From a virus: DNA of 39,311 bases. The notes below the pieces were generated by a model. The model saw only the letters and a program-made list of their open reading frames with translations. It searched no databases and had not been told where the DNA came from. Shown in pieces: positions 2,695-39,268 of the stretch; position 1 is the stretch's first letter; every line of letters begins with the position of its first letter. Location: UHGV virus genome UHGV-0361196; one strand, 5' to 3'. The position numbers and the translations under genes are program-made.

Positions 2695-2870
2695 GAGAGG
2701 TAAATCATTTGATACTGCTGAAAAATCCGGGAGGAAAGTGGATCAAACGGGATTTGATGGGATAAAACAAACAGTTATGACGTAAAACAGTGTTATGCGC
2801 ACAACATGTGATTTGATACTACTGTCGCAAAGAAAGCTAAAAACGAAAAAATATTTGATACTACTGATTT
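2695..2870. repeat. left end (attL-like) with three putative transposase-binding repeats
   Basis: TTTGATAC at 2708..2715, 2812..2819 and 2854..2861 in the same orientation; L1 is about 100 bp from the adjacent L2/L3 pair, as in Mu attL; the reverse complement GTATCAAA recurs three times at the right end. Confidence 0.6.
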
Positions 2871-2895
2871 CTGCGATTTTAACGTTTTAAACAGG

Positions 2896-2932
2896 TTAAA
2901 AAACCAGCCGCGGGCTATTGGAATTAGCCCGC
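2896..2932 (-). terminator. candidate intrinsic terminator of repressor gene
   Basis: 8-bp stem GCGGGCTA / TAGCCCGC (2910..2917 / 2925..2932) with 7-nt loop; plus-strand A-run 2898..2903 gives a U-run after the hairpin on the minus strand; stem overlaps the stop codon. Confidence 0.4.
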
Positions 2933-3508
2933 CTTCGATTCTAAACTACTTGAGAGTTTATCGCTTTCAATTTCTGCCAAAATCTCTCTAACTCTTTCAT
3001 CCGATAAATGATCTAAAAGTAGAGCTGCTGCACGTTTTCGTCCTTCAAGTTGGATTAGTTCTTGATTCTCTGGTTCAAGTAACCGTGACAAGTACTTAGC
3101 TCCATTTAGCGCGAGGATTTTTGATAATCGCTCTGCCTCTGATGCTTCTAAAGCACTTAGTATAGCAAGAAGGCGCTGTAGCGTTATATCTAGGGGCAAT
3201 TGGACGTTTTCATCTATTTTAGGTGATATTGGTTCTATATCCTCCTTGCCAAAAACAAGCCAATCAATGCTCACCCCTTCTGCAAAAGCAATCTGACTAG
3301 CTACTTGTAGAGATGGTGTCGCATCTTTCTCAAAGTAGTTGTTAAGTGTTGAGAACGGTAGCCCCCACGCCTTCGCCACGGCAGTCTTGGAGCGCCCGCG
3401 CATTAGCATGGCTAGGCGCTCTTTAATGCTTTCTTTTTGAAACACAGGAAAAGAAAAATCACTTTCTTTTTCAGTGCTTCTTTCTTTTCTGTTAACCATA
3501 TGATTCAT
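2924..3508 (-). CDS. prophage repressor with XRE/lambda-cI-like HTH (Mu c functional equivalent)
   Basis: Only minus-strand gene in the prophage, divergent from ner as in Mu; HTH-like segment SKTAVAKAWGLPFSTLNNY followed by GVSIDWLVFG; start ambiguous (ATG 3508 or 3499 preferred over the GTG at 3559 that gives the 211-aa track ORF). Confidence 0.7.
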   Translation of the reverse strand: MNHMVNRKERSTEKESDFSFPVFQKESIKERLAMLMRGRSKTAVAKAWGLPFSTLNNYFEKDATPSLQVASQIAFAEGVSIDWLVFGKEDIEPISPKIDENVQLPLDITLQRLLAILSALEASEAERLSKILALNGAKYLSRLLEPENQELIQLEGRKRAAALLLDHLSDERVREILAEIESDKLSSSLESKAG

Positions 3509-3648
3509 AAAGAAATATCCTTTTGTAGATAAAAACCACCAAAGAAAGAGATAAAACACCTTTACTTTTCTTTTGTAGTGATCAAATATTTATCTGTAGA
3601 GATTATCCGGCGGTGTTATCCGCGCAGATAACTTTTAAGGATAAACGA
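3509..3648. promoter_or_regulatory. divergent early/repressor promoter-operator region
   Basis: Intergenic between divergent repressor and ner; repeated CTTTTGTAG-like motifs (about 3514..3530 and 3569..3585; variant TATCTGTAGAG about 3591..3601) and near-palindrome GTTATC-CGCGCA-GATAAC at 3615..3632; lies about 0.8-0.95 kb from the left end, where Mu has its operators and transposition enhancer. Confidence 0.5.
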
Positions 3649-3885
3649 ATGATGTCTATAAATGAAGTTGTTAAACAGGACTGGCACCCCGCGCATGTTG
3701 TCGCGGCGGTGCATGTAAAAGGTTTTACTTTACGCTCTCTGTCCATTGAAGCCGGTTTAAACCAGGATTCTTTAAAGAATGCCCTGTACCGCAAATGCCC
3801 AAAATATGAGCGCATTATTGCTGATGCTATTGGTGTTGCGCCGGAGGAGATCTGGCCCAGCCGTTACGCTCGTAAGGTGGCATAA
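3649..3885 (+). CDS. ner: Ner-like DNA-binding early regulator (Ner/Nlp family)
   Basis: C-terminal region ...ADAIGVAPEEIWPSRY resembles the Ner/Nlp family signature; RBS AGGA 9 nt upstream of ATG 3649; the track ORF from 3613 is probably a 5' over-extension. Confidence 0.8.
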   Translation: MMSINEVVKQDWHPAHVVAAVHVKGFTLRSLSIEAGLNQDSLKNALYRKCPKYERIIADAIGVAPEEIWPSRYARKVA

Positions 3886-3887
3886 AA

Positions 3888-5975
3888 ATGTTTGTATCAG
3901 TTAATGAGCTTGTAGGGTTACCAGGTATGCCGGGAACTGCGCAAGGGGTGCGGTATTCCATAAGGAAACTGGCCTCATCTGAGCATTTCAGGCGCAAACG
4001 TGCGGGTTCAAAAACCATTGAATACAGCATCGACTGCCTCCCTCCGGTTACACAACGGGCGTTACGTGAGCGACATGTAGCTCAACTGATGGCAAGCGCC
4101 CCGCGGGAGATAACTACCCAGCCTCCTGTAAAGCGTGAACGCAAACAAAATGTTGTACAGCCTGTTGAGGCATATCGCGGTTCGCCACAATTGGTAGAAG
4201 AGCGTCTGAATGCGCTTACGGAAAATCAACGTAAAGTTGCAGAAGCGCGCATTGCTCTTGTCTGTGAAGTTCTACGAATTAGCCAGGAGCCGGGATTCAG
4301 TTGTGCCAGCGCTATACGTTTTATTGTGTCGCGGTTAGCGCAGGGTAACCTGGAAGAACGCCTGGAATCTTTGGTCATTACTGCTAATGCCCGTAAAGGA
4401 AAAGAGCGAACTCTGAGCGCAATTACGCTCAAACGTTGGATAGCTGCGTTTAACAAAGCACAGAATGCCGCAGAACGACTGCTGTTACTGGCACCAGGAA
4501 AGCGCGACGAAATAAAACCGGAAGAAATTAGCTGGCTGCCTGAATTTCTGGCGCAGTATCGTCAGGCTAACGGCAGGCCTATGTCTGAAGCCTATGAGGA
4601 TTTTGTCGCTGATTGGCAGCGTCGCCATGCGGACGAACCATACATGCTGGAGGTGATGCCTTCCTATGATGTTGTCCGGTATGCCATGAAAAAACTGCCG
4701 GAAGTGGTGAAACAAAAAGGGCGCGTTACCGGCAGTGAATACCGTCAGCTTGAAGGATTCACCCGCCGCGACTGGACAGCTATGCCGGTGAATTATGTCT
4801 GGATTGGTGACGGTCACGGTATGAAGCTGAAATGTGCACATCCGATCCACGGGCGTCCATTCTCACCGGAAGTTACATTTGTGATCGACGGTGGAACCCG
4901 GTTTGTTGTTGGCTGGAGTCTTGACCTTGCCGAGAACGTGTTCGCCGTTGCCGGTGCGATACAGCACGGCATTCGCAACCACGGAAAACCGTTTCTGTAT
5001 TACTCGGATAATGGTTCTGGTGAAACGGCTGACATACTGGACAAAGAGGTCGTGGGTATTCTGCCCCGCCTGGGGATTAAACACCCTACCGGTATTGCCG
5101 GTAATCCACAGGGGCGCGGCATTATTGAACGCCTGAACCGGACACTGCCGATGCGTATAGCCAGGAGGTATCGCACCTATTTTGGCAAGGGTGCTGACCG
5201 GGAATCGTTGCGTGTACTTAACCGTGATCTGCGTTCAGCGTTTAACGCCATGCAACAGGACAAGCCTCTGAACGACCGCCAGAAAGCTGCAATGCGCGAG
5301 CTACCATCGTGGGCGGAGCTTATTGAGGCTATTCGTGAAGGCGTGGAATGGTACAACAACCGCCCGCATTCTGAGCTGCCAATGAAACCGAACGGGCGGC
5401 ATTACAGCCCGGCAGAGTTCAGAAAAAAACGCCTGGCAGAAGAAGACACCGAAATTGAGTGGCTGAGTGATCTTGAGCTGCGCGACATGTTCCGCCCGAT
5501 GGTGGAACGCCCGGTAAGACGGTGCGAAATTCAGTGGCTGAACAATATTTACTACGCGCCGGAGTTGCGTGACGAACACGGTCGCAAAGTACTTATCAGT
5601 TATGACATTCATGACGCCGAGCGAATTACGGTACGTCGCAAGGACGGCAGCTTTATCTGTGAGGCGATATGGAACGGCAATAAACGCACAGCCTTTGCTG
5701 TCAGTGCTGAATATCACAAACAACAGCAGCGTATTAAAGGAATGCGCAAACGTGCTGAGGAAAAAATTCGTGATGCTGAGGATGAAGGCATTCAGATACT
5801 GGAGCACAAACAGGCTGAACCCTGGCTGGATAATGTTTATCGCCCGGTTGGCAATACGGTAACCATCCAGCAACAGGATTATGAGGAGGATTACGACGAA
5901 GATTATGAACGCGATTTCAGGCTGGGTTTGCAGAAGCTTGTAGCCATACAGGAACAGGATGATCCGCTGGCCTGA
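3888..5975 (+). CDS. DDE transposase, MuA family (divergent from Mu A)
   Basis: 695 aa; N-terminal enhancer-binding-like domain (VNELVGLPGMPGT...KTIEY) and candidate DDE residues in IGDGHG, YYSDNGSG and GIIERLNRTL, aligned by eye to Mu A catalytic core; acidic C-terminus; RBS AAGGTGG. Confidence 0.9.
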   Translation: MFVSVNELVGLPGMPGTAQGVRYSIRKLASSEHFRRKRAGSKTIEYSIDCLPPVTQRALRERHVAQLMASAPREITTQPPVKRERKQNVVQPVEAYRGSPQLVEERLNALTENQRKVAEARIALVCEVLRISQEPGFSCASAIRFIVSRLAQGNLEERLESLVITANARKGKERTLSAITLKRWIAAFNKAQNAAERLLLLAPGKRDEIKPEEISWLPEFLAQYRQANGRPMSEAYEDFVADWQRRHADEPYMLEVMPSYDVVRYAMKKLPEVVKQKGRVTGSEYRQLEGFTRRDWTAMPVNYVWIGDGHGMKLKCAHPIHGRPFSPEVTFVIDGGTRFVVGWSLDLAENVFAVAGAIQHGIRNHGKPFLYYSDNGSGETADILDKEVVGILPRLGIKHPTGIAGNPQGRGIIERLNRTLPMRIARRYRTYFGKGADRESLRVLNRDLRSAFNAMQQDKPLNDRQKAAMRELPSWAELIEAIREGVEWYNNRPHSELPMKPNGRHYSPAEFRKKRLAEEDTEIEWLSDLELRDMFRPMVERPVRRCEIQWLNNIYYAPELRDEHGRKVLISYDIHDAERITVRRKDGSFICEAIWNGNKRTAFAVSAEYHKQQQRIKGMRKRAEEKIRDAEDEGIQILEHKQAEPWLDNVYRPVGNTVTIQQQDYEEDYDEDYERDFRLGLQKLVAIQEQDDPLA

Positions 5976-5982
5976 ATAAAAA

Positions 5983-6006
5983 AACAGTCCGCGGGAACGG
6001 ACTGTT
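5983..6006 (-). terminator. hairpin between A and B, terminator-like on the minus strand
   Basis: 9-bp stem AACAGTCCG / CGGACTGTT with 6-nt loop; a run of 7 A precedes it on the plus strand (U-run after the hairpin on the minus strand); no T-run after it on the plus strand. Confidence 0.35.
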
Positions 6007-6048
6007 AAACGAAGGAAACAAAGCTGATTTGAATAAACGGAGAATAAT

Positions 6049-6981
6049 ATGACCGATATTAATGATGTTTTCAACACGATTAACACACTTATTACTGACG
6101 GCGTAAAAACACAAAGCGCTATTGCTAAAGAAGCGGGGGTGTCGGAGGCCACTCTTTCTGAACTTCGCAAAGGCCGTTACAAAGGTGATACCGAAGGGAT
6201 GCATGACAAATTACTGATGTGGCATCAGAGCTGGCAAAAAAGTCTGGAGTTACCTGGCGCACCACAACTTGTGGAAACACAAACCCTCCGTGATTTGCGC
6301 GAGCTGTTTCAGACCGTGCGTGTTATGGGCTGTATCAGCGTTCTGGTTGGTGTGCCGGGTGTTGGTAAAACCGTTGCGGCCCGTGAATACAGTAACCGTG
6401 TATCTAATACCTGGATGGTGACCCTTTCCCCTGCACACTCAACAGTGACTGAGTGTCTGCTGGAGCTGGCAGACGCGCTGGGAATTGATAATCCGCAAAG
6501 AAATAAAGGCGCATTGACCCGCGCCATTCGCAAAAAACTGAATGGCACACGCGGTCTGGTTATTGTGGATGAAGCTGACCACCTGAGCATGGACGGGCTG
6601 GAGCAGTTACGCGCCATTCAGGATGCAACCGGCGTCGGGATGGTATTGATTGGCAACCCACACCAGTTAGCCAAAGCCACACACCGGGGAACAGATGACC
6701 TTGCACGTTTGTTCAGTCGTTTCGCCAGAACAAAGCAACTACGTAAAGCCAAAAAGGCTGACGTGGTGGCAATTGCGAAAGCCTGGGGCATTGAGGGCGA
6801 AGATGAATTATCACTCATGCAGAGCATCGCGGAAAAACCAGGTGCATTACGTGTATTAACTCATACGCTGAATCAGGCGTGGCTGGCTGCCAGCGGGAAA
6901 GGCGTTCCTCTATCCAAAGGCTACATTAAAGCAGCTTTTAAAGAGGTTTACAGCAACCCGAAATTACTGAACTGGTGGTAA
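6049..6981 (+). CDS. MuB-like AAA+ ATPase transposition target-capture protein
   Basis: 310 aa; Walker A GVPGVGKT and Walker B VIVDEADH; N-terminal HTH-like region; directly after transposase gene as in Mu; RBS GGAGA. Confidence 0.9.
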   Translation: MTDINDVFNTINTLITDGVKTQSAIAKEAGVSEATLSELRKGRYKGDTEGMHDKLLMWHQSWQKSLELPGAPQLVETQTLRDLRELFQTVRVMGCISVLVGVPGVGKTVAAREYSNRVSNTWMVTLSPAHSTVTECLLELADALGIDNPQRNKGALTRAIRKKLNGTRGLVIVDEADHLSMDGLEQLRAIQDATGVGMVLIGNPHQLAKATHRGTDDLARLFSRFARTKQLRKAKKADVVAIAKAWGIEGEDELSLMQSIAEKPGALRVLTHTLNQAWLAASGKGVPLSKGYIKAAFKEVYSNPKLLNWW

Positions 6982-6992
6982 GGGGATAAATA

Positions 6993-7220
6993 ATGATGTC
7001 ACGAAATATAAAAATGGCAACGGATGCGCAGAACTGGTTACAGGCGCGCGGGAGTCATGTAAATGAATCATATCTCGGCGTGGCGCGTCCGATTCTTGAA
7101 ATCACTTACCCACCGGTGGAACTGGTAAAAAACGCGGTCAGAATTATGGAGCATAAGTCCGGGGTGGCCCGTTCTGTATGGACGGCCCGTCTTAATGGTT
7201 GCCAGATTATCTGGAGATAA
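6993..7220 (+). CDS. hypothetical early protein (75 aa), positional equivalent of Mu kil
   Basis: First ORF after B; function not established from sequence. Confidence 0.5.
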
Positions 7221-7222
7221 CG

Positions 7223-7444
7223 ATGTGTATTAAAGCTGAAAAATATATTGAATGGGTTAAACACTGTCAGTGCCACGGGGTGCCGCTGACGACATATAAA
7301 TGCCCAGGATGCGGTGAACAGATTATGACGCAATGCTCACCCGAAAAGGAAATTCGGGATTCCCTGACATGTTGTCCGTGGTGCAGCGCAGTTTTCTTTA
7401 AGCAGGTAAAAGGCGCGAAGGTAAAAGCCAGCGCAGTTATTTAG
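7223..7444 (+). CDS. small zinc-ribbon protein (about 73 aa)
   Basis: Cys pairs CQCHG, CPGCG and CCPWC; RBS GGAGA about 10 nt upstream of ATG 7223; the track ORF from 7199 is an in-frame 5' extension. Confidence 0.5.
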   Translation: MCIKAEKYIEWVKHCQCHGVPLTTYKCPGCGEQIMTQCSPEKEIRDSLTCCPWCSAVFFKQVKGAKVKASAVI

Positions 7445-7464
7445 AATCAATAAGGAGAAGAAAA

Positions 7465-7734
7465 ATGGCAAAGGTTATCTTTGAGTTTACATGGCTGGAA
7501 AGTAGTGACAGTTGCAATGGGCGCAGAGAAGTTCTGGATGCAAAAGCATGTCTTGCAGATATCTCGCCAACGGAAAATACCGGGCCTCATGATTTACTGG
7601 CAAATATAGTCCTGACTATGGCTCCTGAAATTATTAAAAAGGCCAAAGATGAGATGCTGACCACTATGAAGAAAGTGGGTATGGAAGCTGAATGTGATTT
7701 AGTACCACGTCCGGTGAATGTGGTTAAACATTAA
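7465..7734 (+). CDS. hypothetical early protein (89 aa)
   Basis: Strong RBS AAGGAGAAG upstream of ATG; no motif recognised. Confidence 0.55.
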   Translation: MAKVIFEFTWLESSDSCNGRREVLDAKACLADISPTENTGPHDLLANIVLTMAPEIIKKAKDEMLTTMKKVGMEAECDLVPRPVNVVKH

Positions 7735-7754
7735 TTCGCAAAGGAACGCTGACA

Positions 7755-8174
7755 ATGAACGTCAAAATCCGAAATGAAATTCAGGCATTAATTCGAATTA
7801 AAATGCGTAATAACAATCCAGGAGAATTACGCGAGTTTATTTTCACCCGCAAAGTTTATGAGCATGGTGAAACTACTTATCTGATTACATTTGACCATTA
7901 CAGCATTTGTGCGCGTTATTGTGGCGAAAACATCTCTAATGCCATCACGTTTGGCGGTGCGTTTAACGAGGATTTATGGGAATACGTCATGGACCGCGAA
8001 TACATCTGCGCATCAGACCCTGAAGCCCGTGAAATGTGGCAGCGTATCTGGCGCGATTACCGGTTAATGGCAAAAGGCTGGGCGCGCTGCTGTTATTCCT
8101 CGCTTGCCCTGAAAGCGGTTCAGTTATCGCTGCGGCATATTCCGGCATCACTGCACGAGCCTCTGCTGTACTGA
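7755..8174 (+). CDS. hypothetical early protein (139 aa)
   Basis: RBS AAGGAA upstream of ATG; no motif recognised. Confidence 0.55.
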   Translation: MNVKIRNEIQALIRIKMRNNNPGELREFIFTRKVYEHGETTYLITFDHYSICARYCGENISNAITFGGAFNEDLWEYVMDREYICASDPEAREMWQRIWRDYRLMAKGWARCCYSSLALKAVQLSLRHIPASLHEPLLY

Positions 8175-8474
8175 ATGGTGACTGACATGAAGTGTAATCG
8201 TAAGCGCTGGTCACGCGAAGACCGGGAATTTATCGAAGCCAGCGTCGGGAAAATGACCATTGAAGAAATGGCGGAAAAACTGAACGTTGCCACAACCGCC
8301 CTCCGGGCACATGCCAGAAGGCACGGAATATCGTTGTGTGCATACCGGGTCAGTGAGCACGACAAATATTTGTGTCGTGAACTTTATAAAGAAGGACTGG
8401 ATATTCATGTCATTGCCCGAAAGATGGAATTAAGCAATCGAGCTGTATCCAGCATTGTATACAGCGGATATTAA
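8175..8474 (+). CDS. hypothetical early protein with HTH-like segments (99 aa)
   Basis: Two helix-turn-helix-like stretches (TIEEMAEKLNVATTALRAHARRHGI and LDIHVIARKMELSNRAVSSIV); start could instead be ATG 8187. Confidence 0.5.
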   Translation: MVTDMKCNRKRWSREDREFIEASVGKMTIEEMAEKLNVATTALRAHARRHGISLCAYRVSEHDKYLCRELYKEGLDIHVIARKMELSNRAVSSIVYSGY

Positions 8475-8493
8475 TTAACAGGAGCTTTAATTT

Positions 8494-9018
8494 ATGGCTA
8501 AACCAGCAAAACGTATCAAAAGTGCCGCAGCGGCTTATGTGCCACAAAACCGCGATGCGGTGATTACCGATATTAAACGCATCGGGGATTTACAGCGCGA
8601 AGCATCACGTCTGGAAACGGAAATGAATGATGCCATCGCGGAAATTACGGAGAAATTTGCAGCCCGGATTGCACCGATTAAAACCGATATTGAAACCCTT
8701 TCAAAAGGCGTTCAGGGATGGTGTGAAGCGAACCGCGACGAACTGACAAACGGCGGCAAAGTGAAGACGGCGAATCTTGTCACCGGTGATGTATCGTGGC
8801 GGGTCCGTCCACCCTCAGTAAGTATTCGTGGTATGGATGCAGTGATGGAAACGCTGGAGCGTCTTGGCCTGCAACGCTTTATTCGCACGAAGCAGGAAAT
8901 CAACAAGGAAGCGATTTTACTGGAACCGAAAGCGGTCGCAGGTGTTGCCGGAATTACTGTTAAATCGGGAATTGAAGATTTTTCCATTATTCCGTTTGAA
9001 CAGGAAGCCGGTATTTAA
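8494..9018 (+). CDS. gam: Gam, host-nuclease inhibitor (DNA end-binding)
   Basis: 174-aa product matches my recollection of phage Mu Gam nearly residue for residue; RBS AGGAG. Confidence 0.9.
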   Translation: MAKPAKRIKSAAAAYVPQNRDAVITDIKRIGDLQREASRLETEMNDAIAEITEKFAARIAPIKTDIETLSKGVQGWCEANRDELTNGGKVKTANLVTGDVSWRVRPPSVSIRGMDAVMETLERLGLQRFIRTKQEINKEAILLEPKAVAGVAGITVKSGIEDFSIIPFEQEAGI

Positions 9019-9115
9019 TACCACCATTAATATTTAATTAATTCACATTCGTTTAATTATGGCGCGATGCGTCAGGGGACTACTCGCGCCTTAATCAGAA
9101 CCGGAGAGAATGAAA

Positions 9116-9664
9116 ATGAAAGCATGTGCTTATTTTAAACTGAGTGACGAAGCCGCTAACGGTTATACGATTCGCTGGCTAAAAGAGGTTTCTGTTAAGC
9201 GTGGTGAGATTATTGAGTCATTACAGCAATCAGTGAAAGCAATCGGTGTGTCTTTGTCTGGTGACAAAGGGCCTGAGAGGGTTACGCATGTCTGGTTTAG
9301 CTACTTACCACCGGAAGGATGGGGGATTAAATCAAGGACACTTTTCATTGGTGATATTCAGTTATGGGGCGCAATGCCGGATATGACAATACCGGCAGGT
9401 CGTGAGTACGGGAAGCTCATCCGGGACTGTGAAAATCAGCTCGAAAAACACCCGGATTTTCAGCGCTGGCTGTGCAATGAACTTAACGTGGCTACCGACG
9501 TTGACCTGTTTGACATCAGGTCCGTGTGGAAAATGCACCACAGCCGTGACGGATTCAGCATTTTGTTTGCAGTGTACCTTCTGGCTGGCGAAGTGAAGGG
9601 ACCGGTTCCCGCCGAATGCCAGCGCATTAAACATTCTGAATTTGTGGCGCTGACGGAGGAATAA
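9116..9664 (+). CDS. hypothetical early protein (about 182 aa)
   Basis: RBS GGAGAG 9 nt upstream of ATG 9116 (track start 9110 is 2 codons upstream); no motif recognised. Confidence 0.55.
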   Translation: MKACAYFKLSDEAANGYTIRWLKEVSVKRGEIIESLQQSVKAIGVSLSGDKGPERVTHVWFSYLPPEGWGIKSRTLFIGDIQLWGAMPDMTIPAGREYGKLIRDCENQLEKHPDFQRWLCNELNVATDVDLFDIRSVWKMHHSRDGFSILFAVYLLAGEVKGPVPAECQRIKHSEFVALTEE

Positions 9665-9667
9665 CCG

Positions 9668-10207
9668 GTGATTGATGCAAAAGTTCTGAATGGTGTCAGC
9701 ACATTATTACGGGCTTACGGGCGTCTGACCTGCGGGGTTCTGGCTGAAAAAATGAAGATGCTGCCCTCGTCAATGGTTTATTTCCTGCGTGATGCGGTTG
9801 ATGCAGGTGTGCTCACCGAATGCAACGGATTTTATGACGTTCCGCGCCCGCGTCCGACGCTGCCTGTAAGACGAAACGCAACTGAGCAGCCTGCTGTTGA
9901 TGATGCGGTGTGGTGCAACTGGCGTCGCTCATTACCCTGGGTGGAAGGTAATACCATCCCCGCTCTGGCAAAAGAGTTTGCAACGGGCGTGCTGACCTGT
10001 GAATCCGTTCACATCGTTGCAGAAGTGGATAACAGGATGTGCGAACAGGGAATGCCCCGTTTTGTGATGGCTTATATCGATATCCGGCTGGGGCGGTTTA
10101 TTTGCAGTTCAAGCGCCTGGAATATCACCGACCATGTACTGCGTTATCTCATCATTGATTTTTCATCAGCACCGGGTGTGGTGCAGGAGGCTGGTTGTGA
10201 AATTTGA
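9668..10207 (+). CDS. hypothetical early protein (179 aa), possible winged-helix N-terminus
   Basis: GTG start with GGAGG upstream; N-terminal helix-rich segment. Confidence 0.5.
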   Translation: MIDAKVLNGVSTLLRAYGRLTCGVLAEKMKMLPSSMVYFLRDAVDAGVLTECNGFYDVPRPRPTLPVRRNATEQPAVDDAVWCNWRRSLPWVEGNTIPALAKEFATGVLTCESVHIVAEVDNRMCEQGMPRFVMAYIDIRLGRFICSSSAWNITDHVLRYLIIDFSSAPGVVQEAGCEI

Positions 10208-10892
10208 AGACTGGGGTATTGATAAAAGTTGTGGCCGGGACGTCCTGGTGTACAAAAACTGTAGCGTGATTGAAGGAGAAGATGCCTGGCAGGTTCTGGA
10301 TATACTTCGTTCTGCTTTATGCAGAGCTGGCTATGTTACGCCAGCGTCAGTTAATGGCGGAACTGCCACTACCTGTATCAGAAATCAACTTTATAGTTTT
10401 TATACAGCCTACAACCGATGGTTAAAGAATGGGGCAATGGAGACGGGCGATGATGTATTTACCCGGGCTGCCGGATTATGTGCCAATGCTTACGATTATT
10501 TTGAATCAATCGGAGCAGACAGCGAGGCTGCGCTAGAACAATTACATGCGGATTTTGTCGCGAGTGGGCTGGATGAATCCCTGCCATTTAATGTAGATAA
10601 CGTGCACTACCATGATGAATGCCTACATGACAGATGCCACCTGAATTCAGCACGTGTGGCATGGGTTGAAAAACACTGTATTAGTTCTGATTCAGAAATA
10701 ACGGGGAAAAAGACAGTCGGTGAAAATTCGTATTCGTGGCTGGGGAAATTTACCACGGTGAAACAGGAATGCCCGACCTGCGGTAATGAAAACCCTGAAT
10801 ATCTGAAAGAGTGCCCTCATTGTGGCGGGCAGAAATGCAACCACTGCGATATGGGCGATGACACAGCGTGCATGAATTGTGAAGGTGAGTGA
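10197..10892 (+). CDS. Cys-rich protein with C-terminal tandem zinc-ribbon motifs (about 231 aa)
   Basis: Four CxxC motifs in the last 40 aa (CPTCG, CPHCG, CNHCD, CMNCE) plus a His/Cys cluster HYHDECLHDRCH; GTG 10197 preceded by GGAGG at 7 nt is preferred over the overlapping ATG at 10134. Confidence 0.5.
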   Translation: MKFEDWGIDKSCGRDVLVYKNCSVIEGEDAWQVLDILRSALCRAGYVTPASVNGGTATTCIRNQLYSFYTAYNRWLKNGAMETGDDVFTRAAGLCANAYDYFESIGADSEAALEQLHADFVASGLDESLPFNVDNVHYHDECLHDRCHLNSARVAWVEKHCISSDSEITGKKTVGENSYSWLGKFTTVKQECPTCGNENPEYLKECPHCGGQKCNHCDMGDDTACMNCEGE

Positions 10893-10893
10893 T

Positions 10894-11501: not shown

Positions 11502-11552
11502 TGTGTAAATTCAGGCGGTGTTGCAGCACCGCCTCTTTCCGGAGGTACGATC

Positions 11553-31201: not shown

Positions 31202-32333
31202 TACCGTCACACTGCGAGCGGATGGCAGGCTGTTTACCGGCTGGACGTCAGTTTCTGTCACCCGCTCCATTGAATCCGTAGCCGGATATTTTGAGCTGGG
31301 GGTGAATGTGCCACCGGGTACAGATTTATCCGGGCTGGCACCGGGGAAGGCGTTCATGCTGGAAATCGGGGGGCAGATTGTCTGCACCGGTTATATCGAT
31401 TCACGGCGACGCCAGATGACCGCTGACAGTATGAAAATCACTGTCGCCGGACGTGACAAAACGGCTGACCTGATTGACTGTGCTGCCGTTTACAGTGGCG
31501 GACAGTGGAAAAACCGCACACTGGAGCAGATTGCGCGTGACCTGTGCGCCCCTTATGGCGTTACCGTTCGCTGGGAGCTTTCCGATAAGGAAAGTTCGGC
31601 AGTTTTTCCCGGCTTCACGCTGGACCATTCAGAAACCGTTTATGAGGCGCTGGTGCGTGCCTCCCGCGCACGCGGTGTACTGATGACCAGCAATGCCGCC
31701 GGAGAGCTGGTATTCAGCCGGGCTGCCAGCACAGCCACTGATGAGCTGGTTCTCGGAGAAAATCTGCTGACACTGGATTTTGAGGAAGACTTCCGCGACC
31801 GGTTCAGCGAATACACCGTCAAGGGGTATGCCCGCGCAAATGGTGCTGAGGGTGATGATATTGATGCGAAAAGTATCGTCTCCCGGAAAGGGACCGCGAC
31901 TGACAGTGATGTGACCCGTTACAGACCGATGATCATCATTGCTGACAGCAAAATTACGGCGAAGGATGCACAGGCCCGCGCCCTGCGTGAGCAACGCCGC
32001 AGACTGGCAAAATCCATCACCTTTGAGGCAGAAATTGACGGATGGACTCGCAAGGACGGGCAACTCTGGATGCCGAACCTGCTGGTCACTATTGATGCCT
32101 CGAAATATGCCATCAAAACCACGGAATTACTGGTCAGCAAAGTCACCCTGATACTGAATGACCAGGACGGGCTGAAAACCCGCGTCAGCCTTGCACCACG
32201 CGAAGGCTTTCTGGTGCCGGTTGAAAGCGACCGTAAAAACAGGAAAGGCGGCGACAGTAACGGCGGTATTGATGCGCTGGTTGAAGATTATTATCGCAGA
32301 CACCCGGAGAAAACGCCGCCATGGAAAGAGTAA
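31194..32333 (+). CDS. P: baseplate hub protein (Mu P-like)
   Basis: 379 aa; overlaps upstream gene. Confidence 0.8.
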
Positions 32334-32914
32334 ATGACTCCGCCATGAACCGCCTGCTAACGCCGCTGATGCGTCGTGTGCGCCTGATGCTTGCGCGCGC
32401 TGTTGTTAACGTGATTAACGACGGGCGAAAGGTTCAGAACCTGCAGGTCGGTCTGCTGGATGATGAGGAATCCGATGAAGTGGAGCGCCTGCAAAATTAC
32501 GGGCATTTCAGCGTTCCCCTGCCGGGCGCAGAGGCGCTGATTGCCTGTGTGGGCGCACAACGTGATCAGGGGATTGCTGTTGTGGTGGAAGACCGCCGCT
32601 ACCGCCCGACAAATCTTGAACCGGGTGATGCAGGCATTTACCACCATGAGGGGCATCGTATCAGGCTGACAAAGGACGGACGCTGCATCATTACCTGTAA
32701 AACGGTCGAGGTTTACGCTGATGAAAGTATGACCGTTGACACACCCAGAACCACGTTTACCGGCGACGTTGAGATCCAGAAAGGTCTGGGCGTTAAAGGT
32801 AAAAGCCAGTTCGACAGCAATATTACTGCCCCGGATGCCATCATCAATGGCAAATCGACGGATAAGCATATCCACCGTGGCGACAGCGGTGGAACCACGG
32901 GGCCAATGCAATGA
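32321..32914 (+). CDS. baseplate central spike / assembly protein V-like
   Basis: 197 aa; C-terminal beta-rich region; assigned by position and size. Confidence 0.7.
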   Translation: MERVNDSAMNRLLTPLMRRVRLMLARAVVNVINDGRKVQNLQVGLLDDEESDEVERLQNYGHFSVPLPGAEALIACVGAQRDQGIAVVVEDRRYRPTNLEPGDAGIYHHEGHRIRLTKDGRCIITCKTVEVYADESMTVDTPRTTFTGDVEIQKGLGVKGKSQFDSNITAPDAIINGKSTDKHIHRGDSGGTTGPMQ

Positions 32915-33348
32915 CCGATTTAGCCATTATCTGGACGAACGGACGCGGCGATATTGCACAGGATGGCATTGATATGCTGACCGACGACAGCCTGACAACC
33001 GATGTGACAATCTCCCTGTTTACAGACCGGCGCGCGCTGGATTCTGACACGCTGCCGGATGGTTCAGATGATCGCCGTGGATGGTGGGGTGACAGTTACC
33101 GCGACCGCCCCATCGGTTCGCGGTTGTGGCTGTTATCACGTGAAAAAGCCACACCGGATACGCTGGAACGCGCCAGAGGGTATGCCGAAGAGGCGCTGGA
33201 ATGGCTGAAAACAGCGGGCCGGGTAAGTGCGATTAACGTCAGAGCGGAACAGTTACATCAGGGCTGGTTATACCTCTACATTGCCCTGACATTACCGGAT
33301 GGTTCCGTTATTCCTTATGAGTTTAAAGCAGCATTTAACGGGGTTTAA
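32911..33348 (+). CDS. baseplate wedge protein (W/gp25-like)
   Basis: 145 aa; ATGA overlap with upstream gene. Confidence 0.7.
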   Translation: MTDLAIIWTNGRGDIAQDGIDMLTDDSLTTDVTISLFTDRRALDSDTLPDGSDDRRGWWGDSYRDRPIGSRLWLLSREKATPDTLERARGYAEEALEWLKTAGRVSAINVRAEQLHQGWLYLYIALTLPDGSVIPYEFKAAFNGV

Positions 33349-34431
33349 ATGGCTTATTCACCACCGACATTATCATCGCTGATTGCCCGTACAGAACAGA
33401 ATATTGAACAGCGCCTGCCGGGTAGCTGGCCTCAGGCCCGTGAAAAAACGCTGAGTGCCATTGCATATGCTCAGGCGGGCCTTGCTGCCGGTTGTCACGA
33501 GCATATTTCATGGGTTGGACGGCAGATTATCCCGTCGACAGCAGATGAAGATGAGTTGCTGGAGCACTGCCGGTTCTGGGGCGTGCGCCGCAAACAGGCG
33601 ACAGCCGCCAGCGGCCCGCTGACTGTCACCACATCGGCAGCGACCACCATTCCTGCCGGTACACGCTGGCAGCGTGCTGATGGTGTGGTTTACAGCCTGG
33701 CTGATGCCATTGTGATTGACCGTGCAGGAACGACGGAAATTACCGTTACCGCACTGGCTGCCGGTGAAGCAGGAAATACCGGTGAGAATACCCTTTTAAC
33801 GTTGATCACCCCGGTTGCCTGTGTTGTTTCCGATGCCATCACTGTAAAAGGGTTTTCCGGTGGGGCTGATATTGAGAGTGCAGCGGAGCTGCTGTCACGG
33901 CTGGAATATCGTGTCCAGTATCCTCCGTTCGGCGGTAATCAGTTTGATTATGTTCGCTGGGCGCGTGAAGTCAGCGGCGTTACCCGTGCCTGGTGTTTTC
34001 CGACATGGAAAGGCGGTGGCACAGTCGGGGTGACGTTTGTTATGGATAACCGGAGCAATATTTTTCCACAACCGGCAGACGTGGAACGCGTGGCGGATTA
34101 TATCGCCGGTCATACTGACCCGATTACCGGTCTGATTGTCGGACAGCCTGACGGTGTAAATGTCACTGTATTTGCGCCAAAGGCAAAGCCGGTAAATCCA
34201 CGGATTTATATATCACCGAAGACAGCCGAACTGAAACAGGCTATTACCCACGCCATTAATACCATGTTTTTTAATGAGGTGACGCCGGGCGGCGCACTTG
34301 CCCCCTCCCGTATTATCCGTGCGGTGGCAGGTGTTACCGGTCTGGATGATTTTGAAGTGCGTTTCCCGACAGAGATCCAGCGTTCGGAGAATACAGAACT
34401 GTTAACACCGGGGACAATTGAATGGCTGTAA
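33349..34431 (+). CDS. baseplate J-like protein
   Basis: 360 aa; assigned by size and position. Confidence 0.8.
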   Translation: MAYSPPTLSSLIARTEQNIEQRLPGSWPQAREKTLSAIAYAQAGLAAGCHEHISWVGRQIIPSTADEDELLEHCRFWGVRRKQATAASGPLTVTTSAATTIPAGTRWQRADGVVYSLADAIVIDRAGTTEITVTALAAGEAGNTGENTLLTLITPVACVVSDAITVKGFSGGADIESAAELLSRLEYRVQYPPFGGNQFDYVRWAREVSGVTRAWCFPTWKGGGTVGVTFVMDNRSNIFPQPADVERVADYIAGHTDPITGLIVGQPDGVNVTVFAPKAKPVNPRIYISPKTAELKQAITHAINTMFFNEVTPGGALAPSRIIRAVAGVTGLDDFEVRFPTEIQRSENTELLTPGTIEWL

Positions 34432-34964
34432 CACCCTATCAGACGGCCTTTCTGCAATTACTGCCGTCAGGGCTTGCCTGGAATAAAAGCCCCGACAGCA
34501 AATTATCTGCGCTGGCGCAGGCCATCAGCGACGTGATTGCCACTGCGGCGGATGATGCGCGGCAAATGCTGCGGGAGCGTTTCCCGTCCACATCCCGCTG
34601 GTATCTGGGTGAGTGGGAATCATTTCTGGGGTTGCCGGACTGTACAAGCGAAAACGGCACCCTGTCCGAACGCCAGCGGGCTGCCGCGAATAAAATGCGT
34701 ATGACCGGCAATCTGAGTCGGCGCTTTTATGAATGGCTGGCTGCGCAGTACGGTTTTACCGTCAGGCTGACGGATTCCACAGAAGGCCAGTGGGTTACGC
34801 AGGTCAATATTTACGGTATTAAAAATTATCGCAACGCAACGGTGCTGGATAATGTTCTGACGCCGTTACGTGTTTATGAATCGGGTGCGCTGGAATGTTT
34901 ACTGGAGAAATATAAACCTGCACATCAGATTTATAAATTTGTTTACCATGACGGAGATAACTAA
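34422..34964 (+). CDS. baseplate/tail protein (P2 gpI-like position)
   Basis: 180 aa; overlaps both neighbours. Confidence 0.7.
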   Translation: MAVTPYQTAFLQLLPSGLAWNKSPDSKLSALAQAISDVIATAADDARQMLRERFPSTSRWYLGEWESFLGLPDCTSENGTLSERQRAAANKMRMTGNLSRRFYEWLAAQYGFTVRLTDSTEGQWVTQVNIYGIKNYRNATVLDNVLTPLRVYESGALECLLEKYKPAHQIYKFVYHDGDN

Positions 34965-37528
34965 TGTTTTATATTGATAACGACAGCGGCGTAACCGTCA
35001 TGCCGCCCGTATCCGCCCAGCGTAGTGCTATCGTTCGCTGGTTTTCAGAAGGTGACGGGAATAATGTTATCACATGGCCCGGCATGGACTGGTTTAATAT
35101 TGTGCAGGCGGAGTTATTAAACACGCTGGAAGAAGCCGGTATTCAACCGGATAAAACAAAATTAAACCAGCTTGCACTGTCCATTAAAGCCATTATGGGC
35201 AATAACGCGCTGCTGATAAAAAATAACCTCAGCGAAATAAAAACGGCCGGGGCATCAGCACAGCGCACAGCACGTGAAAATCTGGGTATTTATGATGCCA
35301 GTGTGAGCAAAAAGGGGCTGGTTCAGCTAAGCAGTGCAACAAACAGCACCAGTGAAAAGCTGGCAGCAACGCCAAAAGCGGTCAAGGCAGCAAATGACAA
35401 CGCAAATTCACGTCTGGCGAAAAATCAGAACGGTGCAGATATCCAGGATAAATCAGCTTTTCTGGACAATGTTGGCGTTACCAGCCTGACGTTTATGAAA
35501 AACAATGGCGAAATGCCGCCTGATGCTGATCTGAATACATTTGGTCCCGTTAAGGCTTATCTGGGGATCTGGTCTAAAGCTACCTCAACTAACGCAACAC
35601 TGGAGAAAAATTTTCCGGAAGATAATGCTGTCGGTGTGCTTGAGGTTTTTGCTGCCGGCAATTTTGCAGGCACGCAACGCTTTATCACGAGAGACGGCAA
35701 TGTATACATGCGTAAACTCGCCAATAAGTGGAATGGTACTGATGGTCCATGGGGCGTATGGCGTCACACTCAATCAGCTACCCGCCCTTTGAGTACGACT
35801 ATAGACCTGAATACGCTTGGAGCCGCCGAACATCTTGGTTTATGGCGTAACAGTAGCTCGGCTATAGCTTCATATGAACGCAATTATCCAGAGGAAGGCG
35901 GCTTTGCTCAGGGGACGCTTGAGATCCTCGAAGGCGGGAATTATGGAAGAACACAACGTTATACCACTCGCCGTGGAAATATGTATGTCCGCTGCCTTGC
36001 GGCAAGCTGGGATGCATCAAATCCGCAGTGGGAACCGTGGTTAAGAGTCGGTCATCAGTCAGAGAGTCGTTATTACGACGGGGATTTGAATGATGTGACT
36101 TCACCAGGTATTTACAGCGTTACAGGTAAAGCGACCAACGGTCCAGTACTGGACGGAAACGGCGTGACTGTACTCGGCATTCTGGAAGTGTTGAGGCGGT
36201 TTGATGGTGTTAATGTATGGCAGCGTTATACAACTGCCGGAACAGGTACAACCCTTAAAGGCCGCACCTTTGAGCGCGTCTTTACCGGCAGCTCATGGAG
36301 CGAATGGCGGGAAGTCTACACCTCGTATTCACTTCCCCTGAATCTGGGTATCGGCGGTGCTGTGGCAAAGCTCACCAGCCTGGACTGGCAGACCCACGAC
36401 TTTGTGCCGGGCAGTCTGATAACCGTTCGGCTTGATAACATGACCAACATTCCCAACGGTATGGACTGGGGCGTCATTGATGGCAACCTGATAAACATCG
36501 CAGTTGGTCCGAGTGATGATTCCGGTACGGGGCGCTCAATGCATGTATGGCGCAGCACTGTAAGTAAAGCGAACTACCGCTTTTTTATGGTGCGTATTTC
36601 AGGAAATCCGGGACGCCGCACGATTACAGCAAGACGAGTACCAATCATTGACGAAGCCCAGACATGGGGCGCGAAACAGACATTCAGTGCTGGCCTTTCT
36701 GGTGAACTGTCCGGCAATGCGGCGACAGCAACAAAGCTGAAAACAGCCCGTAAAATTAATAACGTTTCGTTTGATGGAACATCAGATATTAACCTGACGC
36801 CGAAAAATATTGGTGCATTTGCTTCAGGAAAAACAGGAGACACCGTTGCGAATGATAAAGCCGTTGGATGGAACTGGAGTAGCGGAGCCTATAACGCAAC
36901 TATTGGTGGGGCATCAACGTTAATTCTTCATTTTAATATCGGGGAAGGAAGTTGTCCCGCCGCCCAGTTTCGCGTTAATTATAAGAACGGTGGTATTTTT
37001 TATCGTTCTGCTCGTGACGGTTACGGATTCGAGGCTGACTGGTCTGAGTTTTATACCACAACGCGAAAACCTACAGCGGGAGATGTCGGTGCACTGCCGT
37101 TATCTGGTGGTCAATTGAATGGTGCTCTGGGTATAGGAACATCCAGTGCTCTTGGCGGTAATTCGATTGTTTTGGGTGATAATGACACGGGCTTTAAACA
37201 AAATGGTGATGGTAATCTGGATGTTTATGCTAATAGCGTCCATGTTATGCGCTTTGTCTCCGGAAGCGTTCAAAGTAATAAAACCATAAATATTACGGGG
37301 CGTGTTAATCCCTCGGATTACGGTAACTTTGATTCCCGCTATGTGAGAGATATCAGACTTGGCACACGTGTTGTCCAGACCATGCAGAAAGGGGTGATGT
37401 ATGAGAAAGCAGGGCACGTAATTACCGGGCTTGGTATTGTCGGTGAAGTCGATGGTGATGACCCCGCAGTATTCAGACCAATACAAAAATACATCAATGG
37501 CACATGGTATAACGTTGCGCAGGTGTAA
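34964..37528 (+). CDS. tail fibre protein with three tandem knob-like modules
   Basis: 854 aa; N-terminal region typical of Mu S / P2 H-type fibres (...SSATNSTSEKLAATPKAVKAANDNA...); three tandem modules of about 85 aa at aa 188-452; C-terminal Gly-rich region. Confidence 0.85.
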   Translation: MFYIDNDSGVTVMPPVSAQRSAIVRWFSEGDGNNVITWPGMDWFNIVQAELLNTLEEAGIQPDKTKLNQLALSIKAIMGNNALLIKNNLSEIKTAGASAQRTARENLGIYDASVSKKGLVQLSSATNSTSEKLAATPKAVKAANDNANSRLAKNQNGADIQDKSAFLDNVGVTSLTFMKNNGEMPPDADLNTFGPVKAYLGIWSKATSTNATLEKNFPEDNAVGVLEVFAAGNFAGTQRFITRDGNVYMRKLANKWNGTDGPWGVWRHTQSATRPLSTTIDLNTLGAAEHLGLWRNSSSAIASYERNYPEEGGFAQGTLEILEGGNYGRTQRYTTRRGNMYVRCLAASWDASNPQWEPWLRVGHQSESRYYDGDLNDVTSPGIYSVTGKATNGPVLDGNGVTVLGILEVLRRFDGVNVWQRYTTAGTGTTLKGRTFERVFTGSSWSEWREVYTSYSLPLNLGIGGAVAKLTSLDWQTHDFVPGSLITVRLDNMTNIPNGMDWGVIDGNLINIAVGPSDDSGTGRSMHVWRSTVSKANYRFFMVRISGNPGRRTITARRVPIIDEAQTWGAKQTFSAGLSGELSGNAATATKLKTARKINNVSFDGTSDINLTPKNIGAFASGKTGDTVANDKAVGWNWSSGAYNATIGGASTLILHFNIGEGSCPAAQFRVNYKNGGIFYRSARDGYGFEADWSEFYTTTRKPTAGDVGALPLSGGQLNGALGIGTSSALGGNSIVLGDNDTGFKQNGDGNLDVYANSVHVMRFVSGSVQSNKTINITGRVNPSDYGNFDSRYVRDIRLGTRVVQTMQKGVMYEKAGHVITGLGIVGEVDGDDPAVFRPIQKYINGTWYNVAQV
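35525..36319. repeat. three tandem, diverged protein-level repeats in the tail fibre gene
   Basis: Modules beginning LNTFGPV, LNTLGAA and LNDVTSP share the pattern G-x-LE[IV]-x5-8-Q-R-[FY]-x-T-x4-8-R-x7-8-W-x-x-W. Confidence 0.5.
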
Positions 37529-37531
37529 ATT

Positions 37532-38059
37532 ATGCAGCATTTAAAAAACATTAAGTCAGGTAATCCAAAAACAAAAGAACAATATCAGCTAACAAAGAAT
37601 TTTGATGTTATCTGGTTATGGTCCGAAGACGGAAAAAACTGGTATGAGGAAGTAAGTAATTTTCAGCCAGACACAATAAAGATTGTTTACGATGAAAATA
37701 ATATTATTGTCGCCATCACCAGAGATGCTTCAACGCTCAACCCTGAAGGTTTTAGCGTTGTCGAGGTTCCTGATATTACCGCCAACCGACGTGCAGACGA
37801 CTCAGGTAAATGGATGTTTAAGGATGGTGCCGTGATTAAGCGGATTTATACGGCGGACGAACAGCAGCAACTGACAGAATTACAGAAGGCAACTTTGCTT
37901 TCCGAAGCTGAATCCGTGATTTTGCCGCTGGAACGCGCTGTCAGGCTGAATATGGCAACAGATGAGGAGCACAGCCGACTGGAGGCATGGGAACGCTACA
38001 GCGCTCTGGTCAGCCGCGTGGATACGGCAAAGCCAGAATGGCCACAAAAACCAGAGTAA
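37532..38059 (+). CDS. U: tail fibre assembly chaperone (Mu U / lambda Tfa-like)
   Basis: 175 aa directly after the fibre gene; C-terminal segment [32 protein letters not shown] typical of Tfa proteins. Confidence 0.8.
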
Positions 38060-38064
38060 AAATT

Positions 38065-38092
38065 AAGGCCCGATAGCGGGCCTTCTCTTATT
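38065..38092. terminator. hairpin terminator between convergent tail-fibre-assembly sequences
   Basis: 8-bp stem AAGGCCCG / CGGGCCTT with loop ATAG, followed by CTCTTATTC. Confidence 0.55.
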
Positions 38093-38291
38093 CTGGTTGT
38101 TCGGAAAACGTTACTGGCAGGCTGGAGGGGTCTGTATATTCGACCTTCTGCGCATAGAGCATCCACTCGGTTAATTTTTGTTTATTCTCGTCGGAAATGA
38201 TACCCAGCCGTAGCGAACGCATATAGAAAACGACGATCGAATCAATTGAATCGATCGGTAATACAGATCGATTATGCCCCAATAACCACAC
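38088..38291 (-). pseudogene. relic of an inverted second tail-fibre-assembly gene (G-segment remnant)
   Basis: Minus-strand 67-aa ORF whose last 30 aa (SDENKQKLTEWMLYAQKVEYTDPSSLPVTFSEQPE) mirror the Tfa C-terminus pattern D-E-x4-L-x2-W-x2-Y-x3-V-x3-D; convergent with the intact chaperone gene; no variable fibre part or invertase follows. Confidence 0.35.
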
Positions 38292-38320
38292 TCAACCCAT
38301 GATGTTTTTTAAGATAGTGG
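38231..38320 (+). promoter_or_regulatory. mom operon promoter region with Dam-methylation (GATC) cluster
   Basis: Three GATC sites within 35 bp (38235..38238, 38253..38256, 38266..38269), then T6 tract 38305..38310 and candidate -10 TAAGAT; matches the known Mu mom promoter architecture; RBS AAAGGAGG before com. Confidence 0.6.
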
Positions 38321-38343
38321 CGAATTGATGCAAAGGAGGTGAG

Positions 38344-38532
38344 ATGAAATCAATTCGCTGTAAAAACTGCAACAAACTGTTATTTAAGGCGGATTCCTTT
38401 GTTCACATTGAAATCAGGTGTCCGCGTTGCAAACGTCACATCATAATGCTGAATGCCTGCGAGCATCCCACGGAGAAACATTGTGGGAAAAGAGAAAAAA
38501 TCACGCATTCTGACGAAACCGTGCGTTATTGA
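38344..38532 (+). CDS. com: Com, zinc-finger translational activator of mom
   Basis: 62 aa with CxxC...CxxC (CKNCN, CPRCK); near-identical to Mu Com as recalled. Confidence 0.9.
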
Positions 38533-39190
38533 GTATGAAGGCCAGATTGTTGGCTATGGTTCAAAGGAGCTGCGCGTTGAAACCATATCCTGCTGGCTGG
38601 CCCGCACAATTATTCAGACAAAGCACTATTCCCGCCGTTTTGTGAATAACTCTTACCTCCACCTGGGAGTATTCAGCGGACGCGATCTGGTTGGCGTTCT
38701 CCAGTGGGGATATGCCCTTAACCCCAACTCAGGTCGTCGTGTCGTGCTTGAAACGGATAACCGGGGCTATATGGAGTTGAATCGCATGTGGCTACACGAC
38801 GACATGCCCCGCAACTCTGAATCACGGGCCATCAGCTACGCGCTGAAAGTTATCAGATTACTGTATCCGTCAGTGGAGTGGGTTCAGTCATTTGCTGACG
38901 AACGCTGCGGATGCGCAGGCGTTGTGTATCAGGCGTCGAATTTTGATTTTATTGGCAGCCATGAAAGCACGTTCTACGAGCTGGATGGTGAGTGGTATCA
39001 CGAGATAACGATGAACGCAATTAAGCGCGGTGGACAACGAGGCGTGTATTTACGGGCTAATAAAGAGCGTGCCGTGGTGCACAAATTTAATCAGTATCGC
39101 TACATCAGGTTCCTGAACAAGCGAGCAAGGAAGCGGCTAAATACTAAGCTATTCAGGGTTCAGCCATACCCTAAAAGCACTCCCGATTAG
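38453..39190 (+). CDS. mom: Mom, DNA modification protein (adenine modification, anti-restriction)
   Basis: ORF overlapping the 3' end of com in another frame, as in Mu; matches Mu Mom as recalled; the true start is probably downstream of 38453, near the com stop. Confidence 0.85.
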
Positions 39191-39268
39191 TATCAAATAA
39201 TTTTTCGTTGTGCCGTTTTGGGTGGTATCAAAAAAAATTCAAAACGGTATCAAATGATTTTGCGCGCT
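39186..39268. repeat. right end (attR-like) with three putative transposase-binding repeats
   Basis: GTATCAAA at 39190..39197, 39225..39232 and 39247..39254, the reverse complement of the left-end TTTGATAC motif; the outermost 14-mer AAATCATTTGATAC is shared by both ends in inverted orientation. Confidence 0.6.

Follow-up and report, generated by a model that had tools for sequence, protein, structure and literature searches.

DDE transposition has its reference system in bacteriophage Mu, whose parts are commonly regarded as a single co-adapted set. The Mu repressor is paralogous to the I-alpha domain of the A transposase (MuA), with which it shares operator/enhancer DNA, domain III-beta of MuA contacts the B protein (MuB), and the terminal residues of MuA, RRKKAI, are the ClpX recognition signal for disassembly of the transpososome. 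Phage D108 differs from Mu only in c, ner and the N-terminus of A. Here we analyze the virus genome UHGV-0361196, a stretch of 39,311 nucleotides that we call the window in its entirety, and which holds an intact-looking relative of phage Mu inside a conjugative-type plasmid. Very probably this element is a recombinant phage, combining the kil-to-mom part of the Mu/D108 lineage with a transposition and immunity apparatus from the Escherichia coli lineage of the TD225-C4 and Sp18-type prophages. The swapped apparatus consists of attL, the repressor, Ner, A, B and attR, and the exchange is far larger than the difference between Mu and D108.

Compared with Mu (AF083977) and D108 (GQ357916) the gene order is the same, and from kil to mom both DNA and proteins are 94-100% identical. 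With blastn, Mu aligns at 93-98% identity from window position 6988 (Mu nt 4307, the ribosome-binding site of kil) to position 39174 (Mu nt 36598, the end of mom), and it gives no match for 2691-6987 or 39175-39271. For D108, no DNA similarity is detected over the left 4.3 kb (attL, repressor, ner, A and B) or over the last ~97 bp. The same sharp step appears in a 500-bp-window identity profile against Mu, D108 and six further elements: at the B/kil gene boundary the identity rises from undetectable to 97-99% within ~10 nt, and on the right side the departure from Mu falls at the end of mom. Both junctions lie at gene boundaries. An earlier reading made from the sequence alone had predicted a sharp drop in such a plot, and this is indeed what is seen at the B/kil boundary and at the transition from the mom stop codon to attR.

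At the protein level the picture is similar. In a tblastn search with 51 Mu proteins, nearly all genes of the kil-to-mom region reach 94-100% identity. The seven proteins that the sequence-only reading had singled out as nearly identical to those of Mu fall between 95 and 100% (Gam 100%, GemA 95%, Mor 98.4%, C 99.3%, endolysin 99.4%, Com 98.4% and Mom 99.2%). To the left of kil the same search returns 44% for B, 46% for Ner and only a short N-terminal match for A; Mu c has no match to the repressor gene. Taken over the complete element, ~79% of the length is Mu-like and the genome-wide nucleotide similarity (coverage x identity) amounts to 0.76 for Mu and 0.77 for D108. What the swapped part still shares with Mu is its plan, with three sites per end, an I-alpha-like N-terminus of A, an AAA+ B protein, Ner and a divergently oriented repressor; Com and Mom are shared as well.

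To determine the ends of the element, short queries that span them were run against 5,426 complete E. coli genomes. Independent insertions have sequence in common beginning at window position 2691 and ending at 39271, and alignment of five of them gives the termini 5'-TATAGAGAGG...GCGCGCTTTA-3'. The uninterrupted site, present in plasmid p4_4.1, reads tgtctgtTACTgatgttg and contains TACT only once. Each of the five insertions lies at a different locus and is flanked by its own short target duplication: TACT for the window (F-type plasmid), GTGA for the prophage of 1290 (in ydcO), AGCC for WS1933D (glpT), GATA for TD225-C4 (rlmB) and TTAA for S6 (patD). A length of 4 bp, and not the 5 bp of Mu, is the only one that fits all five insertions; 5 bp fails for the window, 1290 and WS1933D. 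All five also have TA...TA termini, against TG...CA in Mu. As a control, the same analysis of a Mu-type prophage (Z0117EC0098, in arcC) recovers TG...CA termini and a 5-bp duplication, TTCAT.

On two points, therefore, the sequence-only reading has to be corrected by the empty plasmid site and the four other insertions. It had placed the boundaries at 2695 and 39268 instead of 2691 and 39271, and it had proposed a 5-bp duplication, TTATA, which is rejected in favour of the 4-bp TACT. The apparent TTATA repeat arises because the terminal TATA/TTTA coincide with the TACT duplication. A practical lesson for annotation is that searches for Mu ends or for a 5-bp duplication will not delimit a 'Mu' prophage. 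We found no literature in the searchable library on a 4-bp duplication or on the module swap; the only trace is the record LC727895, where a related Sp18-like element has been given a 4-nt 'duplication due to insertion' feature by the depositors.

The putative A-binding sites at these ends are likewise of a different type. The core TTTGATAC, compared to ...CGAAA in Mu, has nine copies in the window where 1.1 would be expected, six of them located at the two ends and facing inward (consensus aAaaT.A-TTTGATAC-tac). At both ends the first site starts 17 nt from the terminus, as it does in TD225-C4, in phage vB_YpM_Tongde (hereafter Tongde) and in the Sp18-like element. The arrangement nevertheless follows that of Mu: L1, L2 and L3 are spaced by 104 and 42 nt, against 105 and 41 nt in Mu. 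On the right side R3 overlaps the stop codon of mom. The Mu A-site core RAARYRCGAAAR, from the consensus YMyNwRAARYRCGAAAR of the D108 record, has no match in the window. The suspicion that the end repeats are not built on the Mu A-binding consensus thus proved justified. In D108 the 3' end of mom reads GATTAGTATCATATA (~36640-36660 of that genome, corresponding to window 39180-39200), which looks like what is left of a new-type R3 site (TAGTATCAAATA) and is followed by D108-specific DNA and a Mu-type attR. This may be a sign of an earlier exchange on the right side.

Within attL one block does resemble Mu, as had also been noticed beforehand. Window positions 2705-2763 align locally with Mu nt 10-67 at a score of 32, while 500 shuffles score 12.9 +/- 2.3, and the block is kept in TD225-C4 and Tongde. 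We consider it a candidate pac or architectural site. The pac site of Mu reportedly lies in the spacer between L1 and L2; if so, this would account for the block being kept beside Mu terminase genes.

Transposase A shares its domain order with MuA but only 22% (full-length BLASTP) to 24% (global alignment) of its residues, and B is 44% identical to MuB and 70% to B of TD225-C4. Both proteins are thus only distantly Mu-like, in agreement with the initial description. For A, Pfam reports Mu-transpos_C (1.8e-18) and HTH_Tnp_Mu_1 (1.3e-6), the latter covering an N-terminal domain that resembles I-alpha of MuA (PDB 1TNS, 5e-5), and the A/B pair is matched by the profiles phrog_310 and phrog_296. 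A DDE transposase with a Mu C-terminal domain next to an AAA+ B protein identifies the element as a Mu-type transposable phage, as does its insertion at five unrelated loci with a short duplication each time. The catalytic triad is presumably formed by D308, D374 and E414, which gives a spacing of 66/40 compared to 67/56 in MuA. Residues 362-424 of A (window 4970-5160, motif NPQGRGIIERLNRTL) obtain a better score with retroviral integrases than with MuA; among solved structures, the catalytic region matches the integrase cores of Rous and avian sarcoma virus (RSV/ASV, E ~1e-4).

Whereas MuA ends in ...RRKKAI, the non-Mu tail of A (window 5900-5975) ends in ...DDPLA. The tail ...FRLGLQKLVAIQEQDDPLA (or variants of it) is found together with a non-Mu B in the window, S6, TD225-C4 and the Sp18-like element. 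By contrast vB_YpM_5, vB_YpM_6, WS1933D and Tongde have non-Mu A cores in which the last ~30 residues are Mu's or nearly so: the final 27 residues (...DDEYETERDEYLNHSLDILEQNRRKKAI) equal those of Mu in vB_YpM_5/6 and WS1933D and carry a few substitutions in Tongde. In these four the B protein is 99-99.7% identical to MuB. Across three types of A core the tail type matches the B type in nine out of nine elements, a covariation in keeping with the contact that III-beta of MuA is known to make with MuB. This marks the window element as the complete-replacement form, with a non-Mu A core, tail and B.

The repressor shows a more subtle composition. Its N-terminal half contains an XRE/CI-type helix-turn-helix (Pfam Phage_CI_repr, 5e-6; HTH_3, 9e-6), while the DNA-binding domain of the Mu repressor is a winged helix paralogous to I-alpha of MuA. 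BLASTP against Mu c gives nothing beyond a patch of 16 amino acids. Profile comparisons are more informative: the protein belongs to family phrog_3037 (1e-49), yet phrog_7148, the profile of the Mu c family, matches its residues 109-184 (3.4e-7), and in the reverse test residues 90-185 of Mu c match phrog_3037 (1e-4). The repressor has been exchanged in its DNA-binding half only, and the C-terminal half is homologous to Mu c. The original assignment as an XRE/cI-type repressor accordingly holds for the N-terminal domain and needs refinement for the remainder, which is still Mu-c-like. Only the helix-turn-helix half matches Lambda CI/LexA-type repressors, with no S24 peptidase domain according to Pfam and no match to solved structures. 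Nor is the immunity of Mu/D108 type, for Mu c matches the N-terminus of the window's A and not its repressor. The paralogy between repressor and I-alpha that characterizes Mu is gone here.

Ner is 44-46% identical to its Mu counterpart. All five copies of the 8-mer TTTCTTTT in the 39-kb window sit within 3430-3574, where they form a candidate operator/enhancer array. A terminator-like hairpin is present by the repressor gene (2932-2910), and a sigma-70 promoter scan of the early region found no promoter.

Several relatives help to trace the origin of the module. The same mosaic is already present, unremarked, in two public E. coli genomes, S6 (CP107134) and 1290 (CP184007). Their prophages share the fibre module, the absence of gin and the 4-bp duplications, with 93% similarity overall. 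In the 500-bp profile their left 5.5 kb, with attL-c-ner-A-B inside it, and the greater part of their late region are 100% identical to the window. Differences are found in accessory early genes (9100-9650, 10190-11500 and 12780-13150), and both prophages are chromosomal, not plasmid-borne.

The TD225-C4 prophage (CP035860) carries attL, c, ner, A and attR of the same type (89-99% identity to the window). Its repressor is 98.5% and its A 96% identical, but its late genes are far from Mu (TerS 47%, TerL 44%, portal 30%, capsid 36%). More distant are the Sp18-type prophages (Mu_JNE122137 in LC727895; Sp18 of O157 Sakai), with an A that is ~80% identical to the window's. Over TD225-C4 and the Sp18-type elements together, identity of the late proteins to Mu is 47-57% for TerS, 30-57% for portal and 36-66% for capsid. 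Both share with the window the TTTGATAC sites, the 17-nt geometry, the 4-bp duplication, a ...DPLA tail and a non-Mu B; the left terminus of the Sp18-like element is TG against TA in the window. Sites 17 nt in, a 4-bp duplication, an A identity of at least ~78%, the ...DPLA tail and the cognate B thus place the window's apparatus with the Sp18/TD225-C4 type. Sp18-type prophages are common in Shiga toxin-producing E. coli (PMC10132054).

A third form is found in the Yersinia phages vB_YpM_5 and vB_YpM_6 (MT374853/4), which share their ends with the window element. Their attL, repressor and Ner, together with residues 1-~660 of A, are ~97% identical to the window, and the late genes are of Mu type. 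They differ in having the Mu A tail, a B that is 99.4% identical to MuB, and gin; the switch to Mu sequence falls within A, at Mu nt 3227 in vB_YpM_5. Both are isolated plaque-forming Muvirus phages, and the paper that describes them does not mention the swap (PMC10434027). Tongde has yet another A core, 57% identical to the window's, with a Mu-type tail and MuB. Its attR (36960-37190) is 99% identical to that of the window, while its attL (520-620) has diverged though it is still built on TTTGATAC. The Tongde record holds Yersinia pestis host DNA at both ends.

Do the transposase and its sites always travel together, as the sequence-only reading had proposed for the window? Among the matches listed, all ten E. 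coli genomes with a new-type attL also have a new-type attR and a new-type A. TD225-C4 shows the same combination beside non-Mu late genes, and prophages with a Mu-type A have Mu-type ends, which supports a joint exchange. Some version of the new-type module occurs in 248 complete E. coli genomes, compared to 94 for the Mu type.

The recombinant could have formed by crossing over twice, at the B/kil boundary and again at the transition from the mom stop codon to attR. A single crossover would mismatch the ends, so two are needed: only double recombinants would have ends that match their own transposase. By analogy with Mu, the XRE-type repressor with its Mu-c-like oligomerisation half would shut off the divergent ner-A-B operon. 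After derepression A would bind the three TTTGATAC sites at each end in a Mu-like arrangement and, given its I-alpha-like domain, probably use an enhancer near the operators. It would then cleave at the TA-3' termini and join these to the target with a 4-bp stagger, while B would deliver the target and contact the matching non-Mu tail of A. Packaging, virion assembly and Mom modification may subsequently run on Mu proteins.

Alternative explanations have to be weighed against this recombinant origin. The left region might be regarded as the fast-evolving part of a Mu relative in which no exchange took place, since immunity regions of temperate phages evolve fast and both Ner (44-46%) and B (44%) are recognisably Mu-like. 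Such vertical divergence is extremely improbable, however, given that no similarity is detected on one side of a gene boundary and 97-99% identity is reached within ~10 nt. Moreover, the same late genes pair with Mu-type early genes in Mu and D108, the same early genes pair with late genes that are 30-47% identical to those of Mu, and third forms have breakpoints inside A. It might also be argued that the junctions are an assembly artefact joining reads of two prophages, as the combination of this flank and prophage is not found in the plasmid or E. coli collections. We attach hardly any credence to this explanation: the left 5.5 kb including the junction is 100% identical in two independently finished E. 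coli chromosomes, where each copy occupies a different locus and has a 4-bp duplication of its own, and in the window the flanks rebuild an intact plasmid site.

That the mosaic is real but this copy dead or crippled, either because A and B are incompatible with Mu functions or through a host-range defect without gin and S'/U', seems unlikely. In its favour, gin and the alternative fibre genes are gone and a U' remnant in the S6 and 1290 prophages is annotated as a pseudogene. Yet all Mu late-gene homologues are full length, the related chimeras vB_YpM_5/6 grow lytically (PMC10434027), and loss of gin merely fixes the host range. In addition, near-identical copies at three loci (plasmid, patD and ydcO), each with a clean 4-bp duplication, argue for recent transposition and suggest that the element has recently been active. 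A more serious contender, to which we would give a little less than an even chance, is the reverse direction, with a TD225-C4/Sp18-type phage having acquired the whole kil-to-mom block of Mu. The product would be the same and the new-type module is the commoner one in E. coli (248 genomes against 94). Both directions fit alike, but with ~79% of the length being Mu-like, 'Mu with a swapped module' describes the element more briefly.

Some observations count against the recombinant origin as proposed here, or against parts of it. Identity to TD225-C4 starts at 99% on the left side and has dropped to 70% by B, and this patchiness implies more than one exchange and a true donor that is unsampled. 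Either lineage may have been the recipient, and the ability of this copy to transpose and form particles is a prediction. Four of the five TTTCTTTT copies lie within repressor codons for a Lys/Glu-rich N-terminus, and because of this we advance the operator/enhancer role as a hypothesis only. A pac site in the left spacer that co-evolves with the terminase is not supported by covariation either: the block is present in TD225-C4, with a TerS that is 47% identical to Mu, and mostly absent in the Sp18-like element, with TerS at 57% and TerL at 73%.

Table 1. Positions of the prophage, its ends, its genes and the recombination junction in the window
Feature	Position	Strand	Remarks
Transposable prophage	2691..39271	+	36,581 bp, complete; boundaries common to five independent insertions
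Left target-site duplication, TACT	2687..2690	.	empty site of p4_4.1 has a single TACT; flank matches
Right target-site duplication, TACT	39272..39275	.	p4_4.1 empty site and flank matches
attL, terminus and three putative A-binding sites	2691..2861	+	core TTTGATAC; L1 2708-2715, L2 2812-2819, L3 2854-2861
Mu-like block, L1 and L1-L2 spacer (CCGGGAGG...CGGGAT.TGATGGGAT)	2705..2763	+	local alignment with Mu
Immunity repressor, 194 aa	2924..3508	-	GTG at 3559 would give 211 aa
TTTCTTTT/AAAAGAAA motif array	3430..3574	.	repressor 5' end and c-ner intergenic region
Ner-like early regulator, 78 aa	3649..3885	+	Pfam HTH_35, 4e-25
Transposase A, 695 aa	3888..5975	+	I-alpha-like N-terminus, DDE core, Mu-transpos_C, non-Mu tail ...FRLGLQKLVAIQEQDDPLA
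B, AAA+ target-DNA activator, 310 aa	6049..6981	+	Pfam Phage-MuB_C, 5e-24; AAA_22, 3e-20
Left recombination junction, B stop to kil start	6982..6996	+	lineages alike from the kil ATG on
Mu-type backbone (kil-gam, gemA-mor, C, lysis, head, tail, com-mom)	6988..39174	+	includes accessory non-Mu patches
Tail fibre S (854 aa) and chaperone U	34964..38059	+	C-terminal part of S from 35443 not Mu-like
attR, non-Mu type, three putative A-binding sites	39175..39271	+	R3 39190-39197, R2 39225-39232, R1 39247-39254

Besides the transposition module, the fibre region (Table 1) represents a second module exchange, which fixes the host range. The C-terminal part of S and U are 92-94% identical to fibre genes of P2 type (Peduovirus), and unlike in Mu, gin and S'/U' are absent and the invertible G segment is gone (window 35443-38214). 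The S6 and 1290 prophages still carry a remnant of U' that is annotated as a pseudogene. In the tape-measure gene a tandem repeat of 186 bp (62 amino acids) is present in 1.9 copies (28880-29234); Mu has one copy fewer and S6/1290 have one more, which implies tail-length variants. Four accessory early open reading frames are absent from Mu (7465-7734, 9110-9664, 10134-10892 and 10879-11202) and belong to PHROGs 2230, 2260, 6418 and 1988, all of unknown function. A defence or anti-defence role was sought for them, and no Pfam or PADLOC matches were found. The frame at 9110-9664 is 99% identical in phage Tongde and absent from S6/1290.

Outside the prophage, positions 1-2690 and 39272-39311 consist of backbone DNA of F-type plasmids, which is present in thousands of plasmids from Escherichia, Klebsiella and Salmonella. 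The left flank encodes a DUF3560 gene (557-1918) and an SAM methyltransferase (1965-2528), and the matching flank in p4_4.1 adjoins ssb and a ParB-like gene. In the right flank a (CTGCTA)n hexamer repeat starts at ~39290. The exact insertion, flank and prophage together, was not found among the plasmids of PLSDB or the complete E. coli genomes. Residence on a conjugative-type backbone offers the phage a second route of spread.

By the conventions of the International Committee on Taxonomy of Viruses, a genus corresponds to more than 70% genome-wide nucleotide similarity and a species to at least 95%. With the late-gene set of Mu and a similarity of 0.76 to Mu, the element belongs to the genus Muvirus; at 0.76 (Mu) and 0.77 (D108) it lies outside the species Muvirus mu, which contains these two phages.

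Early-region exchange among Mu relatives is already known from Mu and D108, so that the mosaic is clear but precedented. What the analysis adds are the corrected ends, the 4-bp duplication, the TA termini, the domain-swapped repressor and the covariation between the A tail and B. The Sp18/TD225/window clade might well form a mechanistically distinct branch of the MuA family, with a catalytic core nearer in sequence to retroviral integrases, use of TA-3' as well as CA-3' termini, a 4-bp stagger and a repressor domain that is not shared with the transposase, although we regard the odds of this as even. If true, it would provide ready-made orthogonal Mu-type transposition systems and a natural test of the contacts between A and B. 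The natural chimeras perhaps consist of three separately exchangeable units, one formed by the ends, repressor, Ner and A core, a second by the A tail and B, and a third by everything else; here too we would not lean to either side.

Summarizing, this element and its relatives show where the co-adapted set of Mu can be cut in nature. The ends move as one unit with the repressor, Ner and the A core, the final ~30 residues of A go with B, and the late genes accept either transposition apparatus. Given its 4-bp duplication and TA termini, the element should be heteroimmune and not cross-mobilised by Mu. Such an apparatus would be useful for the design of orthogonal tools and for the annotation of prophage ends.

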